IMG/VR virus record: IMGVR_UViG_3300006752_006525
Coordinates: 33,320-97,319 of that record
Source: a virus
DNA: 64,000 nt
Direction: 5' to 3' (one strand)
Below are positions 11,901-13,922 of this stretch, in pieces (the stretch's first letter is position 1; the number at the start of each line of letters is the position of its first letter). The notes beneath the pieces were generated by a model, which had not been told where the DNA came from, ran no database searches, and saw nothing but the letters and a program-made list of their open reading frames with translations. Made by a program: the position numbers and the translations under genes.

Positions 11901-12618
11901 AGGTGCTCACAATGGTACAGTTGGTGCAACAACACCAGCAACTGGTGCATTTACTACAATTAATGCTTCAGGTACAATTACTGGTGATGTAACTGGTGAT
12001 TTAACTGGTGACGTAACTGGTGATGTAACAGGTGATGTAACTGGTGATTTAACTGGTGATGTTACAGGTAGCATCAGTGGTGCAACTGGTACGTTTACAG
12101 GCGCAGTAAGTTTTGGTACATTAACAGATTCAGGTGAGAGCATTGCAATCACTAAGTTTGTTGATGAAGCAGATGGCATTGGCAACAACGACAATGACAC
12201 TACTATTCCAACTTCAGCGGCAGTTGTTGATTATGTTGCAACAAATGGTGGTGACGGACTATTACTTAGACAAGCATTGACATCAGGTAGTGCAACTATC
12301 GATACAAGTGCTATGCCTAACATTAGTAGCAGAACTTACTATGCACAAAAAATTGTAATTAAGATTGGAACAGCATTTAGTGGCGGTTCTTTCAACCATA
12401 TTCTTGTTAAAGAGAATGGTGGTAGTGGAACAGTATTAGTAGCGGCTGATGACGCAGATGCGGCAACAGCAGGTACTTACATCATCGAGTTAGATGGTGA
12501 TGCGGCACTTACAAAGAATGCGGCTGTACAAGTACAGTTCATGCAGGCAGACAGTAGCACAGCGGCTACAACTACTGCAGGTTCAGGTACAATCTCAGTA
12601 CATTACAACTATGTCTAA
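8989..12618 (+). CDS. repetitive fibre/structural protein, 1209 aa
   Basis: SYGSSTAIP..TVDA.GR.T units shared with the 3015 protein, TGDV tetrapeptide runs, internal ~190-aa duplication. Confidence 0.8.
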   Translation: MADIKNFGIKGLSSDVQLGKGGGKVKYDSSNNRFDLTQSDGSTLENLRLGAITAGAWTATAIGTQYGGLGLDGSSSTGIATFSSGTASIGTIDLSDSGLVDASSQLPVAQGGTGASTAGGARTNLGLGSIATQDSNNVAITGGALDSTVIGGSTAAAGSFTTINASGAITGNLTGTADDADGLSSAVTVGLSGDATGTATFQDAGDTATISTTLATVNSDVGSYGSSTAIPVLTVNAKGLVTAVSTASISTSWTISDGSNTSSIDGGDTLTVSGTANEVDVVVSGDSLTIGLPNDVTIGNNLTVTGSFLSDDITAAQVSVAGDAVITGNLTVQGTQTTVNSTTVETADAIFRVNSNGTTGTDVGFEANVGGTAKQIVYTGAGSKWSVGSETFVAATFEGDVTGDVTGDVTGNVTGNLTGDVTGDVTGDVTGNADTATTLANARTITIDGDVDATATAFDGSQNITLTTTLDNTGVTAASYGSASLVPVLTIDAKGRVTSASTAAITTSFTLAGDTGTQLVEGGDTATIAGGTNITTVASATDTLTVNLDPNISLTNVTTSGGIFTDDIYEQTTNAGITFGHDVNGGAATFSGTVTGGTLTDGTLSASSGAITGATTITASGAITGGSLTDGTATLSSGALTGATNGTFSGTVTGGTLTDGTLSASSGAITGATNITASGTVQYGSLSDGSITVTGFVDEDNMASDSATLIPTQQSVKAYVDAVATAADLDFQGDDATALSIDLDSEVLTIAGGTGLTTAGSGNTLTVNLDNTAVSAGSYGSSTAIPTFTVDAQGRITNASTAAISTSWTLSDGSNTQTIDGGDTLTVSGTTGEVDVAVSATDTLTIGLPSDVTIGNDLTVTNDLTVSGTLNSDDITSATVSVSGDAVISGNLTVNGTQTIVNSTTVQTEDAIFRTNSGGANTDAGFEANTASGVKQILYTAAGTEWDFGSENVKASTFEGNLTGDVTGDTTGAHNGTVGATTPATGAFTTINASGTITGDVTGDLTGDVTGDVTGDVTGDLTGDVTGSISGATGTFTGAVSFGTLTDSGESIAITKFVDEADGIGNNDNDTTIPTSAAVVDYVATNGGDGLLLRQALTSGSATIDTSAMPNISSRTYYAQKIVIKIGTAFSGGSFNHILVKENGGSGTVLVAADDADAATAGTYIIELDGDAALTKNAAVQVQFMQADSSTAATTTAGSGTISVHYNYV
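10183..10281 (+). repeat. 12-bp tandem repeat (ACTGGTGATGTA-like) encoding (TGDV)n
   Basis: About 8 near-identical units visible directly. Confidence 0.9.
11981..12068 (+). repeat. second 12-bp tandem repeat encoding (TGDV/L)n
   Basis: About 7 units visible directly. Confidence 0.9.
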
Positions 12619-12634
12619 TTAATTTTAGATAACT

Positions 12635-12664
12635 AAAAAGGGCAGTTTAACTGCCCTTTTTTTT
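12635..12664. terminator. bidirectional rho-independent terminator
   Basis: AAAAA-GGGCAG-TTTAA-CTGCCC-TTTTTTTT between convergent genes (12618 + and 12668 -). Confidence 0.88.
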
Positions 12665-12667
12665 GAC

Positions 12668-12817
12668 TTAAGGATAGAAAGGATTATCTGTGATATACTT
12701 AGGCCACTCTGTTCTTTTCTCCACAGTGGGGAAACTCAAAGTTGACACTCTTTTTACTTTCTTAAGTTGTTTTTGTACAGCACGTCGAACGAGTACTGTC
12801 TCTTGATACTTAGTCAT
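12668..12817 (-). CDS. 49-aa basic peptide under tandem glutamine riboswitch (MTKYQETVLVRRAVQKQLKKVKRVSTLSFPTVEKRTEWPKYITDNPFYP), not in ORF track
   Basis: AGGAG RBS 6 nt before ATG; open frame to TAA immediately before the terminator. Confidence 0.8.
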   Translation of the reverse strand: MTKYQETVLVRRAVQKQLKKVKRVSTLSFPTVEKRTEWPKYITDNPFYP

Positions 12818-12838
12818 GTCATTCTCCTATCGGAAAAT

Positions 12839-12887
12839 GCGTTCCTTCGGCTTCATTGCCTACTTCCGTCCTTTACAGGATGAACGT
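12839..12887 (-). promoter_or_regulatory. glnA-class (glutamine-I) riboswitch aptamer 2
   Basis: ACGUUCA-UCCU(GUAA)AGGA-CGGAAGUA-GGC(AAUGAA)GCC-GAAGGAACGC. P1 CGUUC/GAACG, P2 with GNRA loop, E-loop GGAAGUA/GAA, P3. Matches the known glnA aptamer architecture. Confidence 0.85.
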
Positions 12888-12893
12888 AACAAT

Positions 12894-12943
12894 GCGTTCC
12901 TTCGTCACTATTGACTACTTCCGCCCAATGATTGGGTGAACGT
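12894..12943 (-). promoter_or_regulatory. glnA-class (glutamine-I) riboswitch aptamer 1
   Basis: ACGUUCA-CCCAA(UCA)UUGGG-CGGAAGUA-GUCA(AUAG)UGAC-GAAGGAACGC. Junctions are identical to copy 2 while the stems covary. Confidence 0.85.
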
Positions 12944-12949
12944 ATAAAA

Positions 12950-12957
12950 TATTTATC
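12950..12957 (-). promoter_or_regulatory. late promoter GATAAATA driving the riboswitch transcript
   Basis: Reverse-strand GATAAATA ends 6 nt before the first aptamer. Confidence 0.6.
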
Positions 12958-12961
12958 ACTT

Positions 12962-13288
12962 TTAGGATTCTAATTGTACGATTTTAATGGCTTCTTCTGT
13001 GCTATATGGACTTGATTCTGCCATTGGAGGCTTAGTTTCGTAGATGTTTTCATACTTTTCTACCATGTCAGCATTGATTTGTATGAATGGCTTTTCTGCT
13101 TCTGGCACATCAATCTCATCAAATATTGCATCAACAGGACATTCTGGTACACACAATCCACAATCAATACATTCATCTGGATCTATGACCAACATATTTG
13201 GTCCTTCATAAAAACAATCAACAGGACATACTTGAACGCAATGTGTGTCCTTACAGCCGACACAAGCACTAGTTACTACAAATGCCAT
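12962..13288 (-). CDS. fdxA: 7Fe (3Fe-4S/4Fe-4S) ferredoxin, FdxA type
   Basis: [43 protein letters not shown], the classic Azotobacter-type ferredoxin pattern. Confidence 0.92.
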
Positions 13289-13289
13289 T

Positions 13290-13892
13290 TTACCCCTTTT
13301 GAAATTTTGGTTTTAAGTCTATATGATACGTGCAAGAAAATACCAGTGTTCTTTTATCTGATAAGTTTGGTGTCATGCCCCATGGAATATGACTTGGCCA
13401 AAACATTACCTTTGCTGGCTTACCTCTTTTAACAACATTGGATGGTGTCACTATAGGTGGCGTAGCCCAACGTTTGTCTCCAAAGTGTTCAAAGTAAACA
13501 CTTGAACTTTTATCTGCACTCTCATCTACATCGAGGAACACTAATGCTGAATACCATCTAAGTCTTTCAGCATTGAGTGGAAAATTATGTTTAGGATTAA
13601 TTGATATAAATTTACTATTAGCACAGGTTATATCTATTTGTGCTTGATTCAACTTATAGTAATCAAAAACTTGCTGGTGAAAAACGTTGCCAAGTATCTG
13701 TACTAGTTTCCTAGTCTTGTCAACTGTGTTGTTTTCTCCTGTGATAAATCCAAAGTTAGTTTCAATTCGAGGAAGTTTTGTATCTACCTCAGTAATAATA
13801 TCAGATATCATATTGCTATCTAATTCTAGTTGTCCATCAAAAACCAAGTCTGGAAACATAGGAGTAATATTCCACCCTAGCGATTTCCTCAT
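13290..13892 (-). CDS. 2OG-Fe(II) oxygenase-like (TIGR02466-like) protein, metal ligands apparently degenerate
   Basis: DSBH-like pattern (YSALVFL…MFWPS…[10 protein letters not shown]), but the expected His ligands are not evident. Confidence 0.5.
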
Positions 13893-13922
13893 ACTACTAT
13901 TTACCGGCTGGCTTTAATATGC

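Follow-up and report, generated by a model that had tools for sequence, protein, structure and literature searches.

Tandem glutamine-I aptamers in a phage leader: a linchpin-anchored hairpin predicted to control translation and a candidate relay between the two sensors

Type-1 glutamine riboswitches have a single tested member, the gifB switch of Synechocystis, which gives an ON response in vivo (PMC6212724). For gifB, Klahn et al. (2018; PMC6212724) postulated that the linchpin C and the bases following it pair with the ribosome-binding site (RBS) and that glutamine melts this pairing; in 2021 the mechanism by which glutamine-I RNAs act on expression was still called unknown (PMC8682795). 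The linchpin is the C that follows P1 and that enters the ligand-dependent G23-C60 pair at the foot of this helix (PMC11477058; PMC6698751), a pair which forms only with ligand (PMC11477058). Tandem arrangements of glutamine-I aptamers have been described (Weinberg 2010, PMC2864571), and Sherlock et al. (2022; PMC9481103) count 157 doublets and 4 triplets, classed as pseudo-cooperative. Aptamers of the glnA type are also reported in marine phages, namely the OM43 phage Melnitz, where the aptamer is linked to a tmRNA gene (PMC9004378), and the cyanophage S-CREM1 (PMC9964418); in the available portions of these two papers the treatment is of presence and context only, whereas here the expression platform of such a phage leader is analysed.

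The window analysed, a stretch of 64,000 nucleotides, is part of a 97-kb IMG/VR virus record, and at least 14 DNA runs of seawater or marine origin, spread over 13 studies, contain half or more of its sampled words. On its minus strand, the leader of a small ORF resembles that of gifB (IF17; PMC6212724) in having an RF01739 aptamer directly upstream of a small-protein RBS, with a linchpin C and next bases that can pair with the RBS. The gifB leader has a single aptamer and a pairing model from one sequence in a supplementary figure, whereas here there are two aptamers, in a phage, and an 8-bp hairpin with comparative support; furthermore, gifB-type switches control a DUF4278 protein and the product here is not recognisably DUF4278. 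Likenesses to the glutamine-II (Downstream-peptide) riboswitch (PMC6698751) are a near-identical ligand pocket, a terminal long-range pair, small downstream ORFs, a (here predicted) ON direction and a proposed competition that occludes the RBS, although the architecture of glutamine-II is a pseudoknot and that of the present aptamers a P1/P3 three-way junction. Our analysis indicates that the leader is probably a tandem type-1 (glnA-motif) glutamine riboswitch which controls translation of a 49-aa phage protein via a hairpin formed by the tail of the second aptamer, with a proposed relay from the first. Its parts, and the Shine-Dalgarno (SD) sequence on which they converge, are as follows.

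12950 to 12956, minus strand: ATAAATA, resembling a T4-type late promoter, 7 nt upstream of aptamer 1 P1; putative, by sequence.
12891 to 12944, minus strand: glutamine-I aptamer 1 (RF01739, 54.5 bits, E 3.2e-9).
12942-12938 with 12899-12895, minus strand: P1 of aptamer 1; the linchpin C is C12894.
12888 to 12894, minus strand: tail of aptamer 1 (linchpin C12894 and linker), 5' strand of the proposed relay helix.
12836 to 12888, minus strand: glutamine-I aptamer 2 (RF01739, 61.8 bits, E 3.1e-11).
12886-12882/12844-12840, 12880-12877/12872-12869 and 12860-12858/12851-12849, minus strand: P1, P2 and P3 of aptamer 2.
12875 to 12886, minus strand: 5' arm of aptamer 2 (5' strands of P1 and P2 and two loop bases), the anti-SD of the earlier note.
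12854 to 12860, minus strand: 5' strand and loop of aptamer 2 P3, 3' strand of the proposed relay helix.
12832 to 12839, minus strand: tail of aptamer 2, starting at linchpin C12839; predicted conserved anti-SD.
12828 to 12831, minus strand: GAUA loop of the SD hairpin, from folds.
12820 to 12828, minus strand: SD AGGAG (12828-12824) and 3' flank, 3' strand of the SD hairpin, with 6-nt spacing to the AUG.
12668 to 12817, minus strand: 49-aa ORF, start AUG 12817-12815; small basic protein, conserved.
12635 to 12661, no assigned strand: two-way terminator-like hairpin of 12 pairs with T-runs on both strands.

Both aptamers score well above the cut-off of 35 bits of the RF01739 covariance model (glnA RNA motif), at 61.8 and 54.5 bits. 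Both junction motifs are intact in each, and C12839 and C12894 directly follow the respective P1. Across the related loci described below, the P1/P2/P3 three-way junction covaries, with 99% of cells paired, 62 both-side changes and a score of 0.250 that none of 500 shuffles reached; P1 contributes nothing to this signal because it is invariant. Neither aptamer matches the glutamine-II (Downstream-peptide) family. Judged by sequence these are two genuine glutamine-I aptamers, for which glutamine binding is predicted.

Of 89 single-aptamer phage loci, 48 carry a late-promoter-like TAAATA ahead of P1, at a distance of 5-13 nt (mode 6), and by this sequence pattern transcripts probably start right at the first aptamer. 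The terminator-like hairpin at 12635-12661 sits between the 49-aa ORF and a convergent tail-fibre-like gene. The two neighbours upstream of the leader, both on the minus strand, are of auxiliary-metabolic type, namely a 2x[4Fe-4S] ferredoxin (12962-13288; phrog_8732, E 7e-38) and a weakly matching 2OG-Fe(II) oxygenase-like protein (13290-13892). When 12400-13900 was compared by BLAST with the phage collection, the ferredoxin gene was the sole match. Contigs from four metatranscriptome runs (four studies) match 12801-12963 with one mismatch each (12817-12963 in X20), being contigs from RNA libraries whose presence is no proof of transcription, start, end or level. These contigs run into unrelated sequence on both sides of the match, and from this sequence pattern the leader and first codons seem to move between phages as a cassette. 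The real start codon of the 49-aa ORF is overlapped by a mini-ORF of two codons, AUG ACA UGA (12814-12822, minus strand). Its AUG falls within the SD hairpin, in the 3' strand, and follows the SD by 1 nt; AUG UUA UGA is often found at this position in relatives. The mini-ORF is probably a by-product of the helix sequence.

The 49-aa protein has homologues in 13 clusters at 51-100% identity, with invariant or conserved N-terminal and C-terminal motifs. It has no PHROGs family, and neither it nor its 12 relatives match Pfam. A DUF4278 (IF17-like) identity was considered, DUF4278 being the IF17-like family tied to glutamine riboswitches in cyanobacteria. It was suggested by the YRG motif of distant homologues (P0010-P0013 have YRG.RYE where the window's protein has LSFPTVEKR), and was rejected on a profile comparison with phage DUF4278-like peptides that gave 0.5% probability and was not significant. 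From its sequence the protein may represent a DUF4278-derived lineage that lost the YRG motif. At ten other phage loci (L003, L023, L051, L062, L067, L089, L090, L106, L115 and L116) the small ORFs carry repeated YRGV motifs and match DUF4278; the DUF4278 matches behind phage glutamine riboswitches are two above and eight below the cut-off. The small basic peptides encoded at other phage loci are unrelated and have a high content of W, C and K.

Folding of the leader places the SD in a local hairpin. In both the minimum free energy (MFE) and the centroid structure, 12839-12832 pairs with 12827-12820 in 8 bp closed by the loop 12831-12828 (-9.7 kcal/mol), and the SD was in this tail hairpin in every unconstrained fold. 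In the ensemble of the full leader, pairing of the SD has P = 0.887 for the tail and P = 0.000 for the 5' arm. Aptamer 2 together with its platform has an energy of -11.8 kcal/mol with an open SD and -21.5 with the hairpin added, so that the hairpin and the aptamer 2 secondary structure can coexist; the best structure with the arm paired to the SD reaches -19.1, and the MFE is -22.6. The SD hairpin stands after aptamer 2, is the only one in the leader and is shared by both aptamers. These folds support, by way of the tail, the proposal of the earlier note that control is on translation and that the SD is hidden in ligand-free RNA.

We then drew on related loci. A search of viral contigs by sequence pattern yielded 120 loci, 100 of them with a unique aptamer-to-start sequence, and about 200 related sequences were compared overall. 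This comparison covers viral loci; in genome contigs searched with a 16-base tandem pattern, none of the matches listed, which were chance matches, passed the full tandem test. Over the 100 unique loci the mean per-base pairing probability of the SD is 0.515 with the tail or linker and 0.011 with the 5' arm, and the arm outscores the tail in only 6. A gapless helix of at least 4 bp starts exactly at the linchpin C after P1 in 73 of the 100, the partner G usually lying 3 nt before the AUG; in the remaining 27, where no helix is anchored on the linchpin, the tail or linker pairs in other ways. Both strands change from one helix class to another (for example CACCU/GGGUG, CACUU/GAGUG, CAUCU/AGAUG and CAAUCU/AGAUUG). 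In a register-free duplex test, tails bind the SD region of their own locus at -6.69 kcal/mol and those of other loci at -5.24, with none of 10,000 permutations as low.

Covariation points the same way. On the alignment of the 100 loci (A1), none of 500 shuffles equalled the tail helix in both-side changes (41; shuffles 22.4), in covariation score (0.195; shuffles 0.145) or in fraction of paired cells; these values rest on few sequence classes aligned with MAFFT, and the shuffles take no account of relatedness. Column 76 of the tail helix has column 111 as its best covarying partner. Mutual information from the MAFFT alignment backs only some of the pairs (76-111 but not 75-112), the variable loop being poorly aligned. 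Individual loci offer natural compensatory variants. In L352 both aptamers are identical to those of the window save one base in the aptamer 1 P3 loop, and identity resumes shortly before the AUG and extends into the first six codons; between these, the tail, loop and SD flank have changed in compensating fashion, keeping the hairpin at -6.3 while the arm-SD duplex falls to -6.5 with the arm unchanged. The L369 leader differs from the window solely in the hairpin loop, which breaks the arm-SD pair 12875/12830 and leaves the tail helix intact, and L406 combines a U at the aptamer 2 linchpin with an A at its partner in the SD flank. Hence we consider it very likely that the tail of aptamer 2 is the anti-SD. 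In some single-aptamer loci (L023, L067, L089 and L106) the tail forms a hairpin of its own (AUUGA...UCAAU) ahead of an unpaired SD, which by sequence is a different platform architecture.

The earlier note had assigned the anti-SD role to the 5' arm of aptamer 2, which in ligand-free RNA would pair with the SD region until glutamine restored P1 and P2 and freed the SD. The pairing exists exactly as described there: 12886-12875 and 12830-12820 (minus strand) form 11 pairs with A12881 bulged and two G-U pairs (12885/12821 and 12876/12829), at the cost of the 5' strands of P1 (12886-12882) and P2 (12880-12877), and the arm of aptamer 1 lacks UCCU. Its strength (-12.2 kcal/mol) exceeds chance for random sequence, as shuffled arms average -5.26 +/- 1.95 with 0.36% equally good, and 9 of 8,000 random 16-mers from the window match it. 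A precedent exists in the glutamine-II switch, which is expected to pit a ligand-stabilised helix, equivalent to P1 here, against an RBS-occluding structure (Huang et al. 2019, PMC6698751), and once the tail is blocked the arm-SD helix does become the MFE. Within the family, however, the complementarity is generic, the invariant pyrimidine-rich arm pairing about equally with any purine-rich SD region. Arms bind their own SD region at -7.15 kcal/mol and those of other loci at -6.94 (register-free duplex test, 100 loci, permutation p = 0.07), and 12 of 100 foreign arms bind the window's SD region equally well or better. On A1 the arm-SD helix pairs 72.2% of cells against 73.5% in shuffles, 496 of 500 being as high, and column make-up explains all of this pairing; thus it does not covary over the 100 loci while the tail helix does. 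Free variation of the P2 5' strands leaves the SD flank constant, and both L352, which keeps the arm and changes the SD flank and tail, and L369, with its broken pair, speak against a conserved arm-SD contact. In constrained folds of the whole leader with aptamer 1 native, the best structure holding the arm-SD helix (-30.5 kcal/mol) lies 2.4 kcal/mol above both aptamers with the hairpin (-32.9) and 5.6 above the best OFF state, relay plus hairpin (-36.1), an open SD costing most (-23.2). Together with the nil population of this helix in the ensemble, and the expectation that a local tail hairpin with a 4-nt loop should form first during transcription, this makes the arm a highly improbable anti-SD, and the window reads best as a clear example of the gifB model of Klahn et al. 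and not of a P1-strand anti-SD.

A compromise limited to the window would keep the tail hairpin as the main lock and admit the arm-SD helix as a minor OFF conformer for when the tail is engaged elsewhere. The window's arm-SD duplex is indeed an outlier, second strongest of the 100 loci against a family median of -7.0, and the structure that holds it also pairs tail bases with the aptamer core in reaching -19.1. The strong match arises because the SD flank, bound to match its tail, happens to resemble the P1 3' strand; since the tail that the flank must match resembles the arm, no selection is needed to explain it. With the arm-SD match missing from the near-identical L352 and a predicted population of nil, we regard the compromise as quite improbable. 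The tail hairpin could also work in the opposite sense, glutamine stabilising P1, the SD hairpin stacking on it and the ligand so tightening the hairpin and repressing translation. P1 and the hairpin are contiguous (G12840, C12839) and compatible in secondary structure, as such an OFF switch would need. Against it, the bound state requires the linchpin C for its G-C pair (PMC11477058) and so competes with the hairpin, whose first pair uses that C; ON is the direction of the single type-1 switch tested so far (PMC6212724); and variants with U at the linchpin have a compensating A at the position opposite it in the hairpin, which fits a base that alternates between two partners. An OFF switch is accordingly judged unlikely. 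Ligand binding and the SD hairpin compete for C12839, and therefore glutamine should weaken the hairpin and turn translation ON. This direction, which the earlier note had also predicted, is the one we think quite likely, by analogy with gifB, so far the sole type-1 switch put to the test (PMC6212724).

The role of aptamer 1 is a separate matter. The linker between the two aptamers is 7 nt long and contains neither a terminator nor an SD (RBS), and therefore aptamer 1 has no platform of its own. Its tail (C12894 through U12888) shows complementarity with aptamer 2 P3, namely with the 5' strand and loop (12860-12854). Further scans gave a set of 97 unique tandem loci, and 81 of these have a 5-7 bp helix anchored on the aptamer 1 linchpin. 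On the tandem alignment (A2), 87.1% of cells in this relay helix pair against 81.8% in shuffles, both-side changes number 31 against 11.0, and the covariation score is 0.202 against 0.123 (0 of 500 in every case), the true aptamer helices scoring 0.250. When the helix is slid to other registers, 21-78% of cells pair. At class level the duplex averages -4.21 for own and -2.66 for permuted partners (0 of 20,000). Column 71, that of C12858, has its P3 partner as best covarying partner and position 5 of tail 1 as second best, which is as expected for a base with two alternative partners, and L068 has a U at the aptamer 1 linchpin with an A at the relay partner.

Whether the covariation reflects a working relay has to be weighed against descent. 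The two aptamers may be independent (pseudo-cooperative), or aptamer 1 may only aid folding, the match of tail 1 to P3 being inherited in a few lineages. Tandem glutamine riboswitches are indeed filed as pseudo-cooperative (PMC9481103), and the covariation of the relay helix rests on three or four main classes. Moreover, the helix is absent from about 16 of the 97 tandem loci, in two classes whose tail 1 is of the type CCGAAC or CAUUGUAAAA. On the other side stand the outcome of shuffling and sliding the helix, the three-way covariation at C12858, the missing platform of aptamer 1, and the specificity of the fit: tail 1 pairs with aptamer 2 P3 at -4.91 kcal/mol and with its own P3 at -0.62, while tail 2 fits aptamer 2 P3 less well (-3.07). 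We therefore consider an arrangement without a relay possible but doubtful, and lean modestly towards a relay in which the aptamer 1 tail is wired to aptamer 2 P3 and the helix would form in vivo. In seven of the relay-less tandem loci (L056, L093, L152, L195, L370, L399 and L436) tail 1 repeats the P1 3' strand as a second GAAC copy and aptamer 2 P2 is long; by sequence, these may be coupled differently, by strand slippage.

Known tandem glutamine-I riboswitches likewise have two complete aptamers of the same class in series with no ORF in between, and a steeper response is expected of them. Pseudo-cooperativity refers to independent riboswitches, each with its own platform (PMC9481103); here the linker is too short to hold one and tail 1 pairs with aptamer 2 P3, so that in the relay view sensor 2 would act as the platform of sensor 1. 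It is this tail 1/P3 pairing, with its covariation, that is new here, and it suggests a serial relay over two independent switches. Two like aptamers served by one platform, with a sharper response as the proposed purpose, also recall the tandem glycine riboswitch. Glycine riboswitch aptamers communicate by tertiary contacts between folded domains, whereas the coupling proposed here is mutually exclusive base pairing, by strand invasion of P3. The suggestion of the earlier note that aptamer 1 may sharpen the response may thus hold, though by another route, through pairing of the aptamer 1 tail with P3 of aptamer 2.

These elements are consistent with the following model. Without glutamine, tail 1 would keep aptamer 2 unfolded and tail 2 would hold the SD, the hairpin of 12839-12832 with 12827-12820 burying it 2 nt upstream of the AUG. 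Glutamine bound to aptamer 1 would capture C12894 and so release P3 of aptamer 2, which could fold only after aptamer 1 had bound its ligand. Aptamer 2 would then fold, bind glutamine and capture C12839, which by homology with G23-C60 would pair, at the foot of P1, with the second G in the CGG motif, G12866. The SD hairpin would be weakened and translation would start (ON), and passage through two sensors in series should give a steeper response than one sensor. The last step is the weakest. Blocking C12839 costs only 3.1 kcal/mol and a 7-bp hairpin remains; in these fold models the opening of the 8-bp hairpin by ligand is not explained by nearest-neighbour energies, and steric or stacking effects beyond the capture of this one base must be assumed.

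Taken beyond this leader, the model would have tandem glutamine riboswitches act as serial relays, in which tail 1 invades P3 of sensor 2 and tail 2 hides the RBS, the second sensor serves as the platform of the first and cooperativity comes from refolding, with the linchpin-anchored tail as the general expression platform of type-1 switches. We regard the case for this generalisation as evenly balanced. The proposal made for gifB from one sequence now gains covariation support over about 100 phage loci, with natural compensatory variants identified in L352 and in the linchpin-to-U cases L406 and L068, and the comparison speaks against a P1 strand as the anti-SD, which would be the more obvious idea. 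The relay offers a concrete, mutation-testable account of why glutamine sensors are often paired, and could guide engineered glutamine sensors with tunable steepness. For marine phages and bacteria, it touches on how glutamine levels in the millimolar range are converted into sharp decisions.
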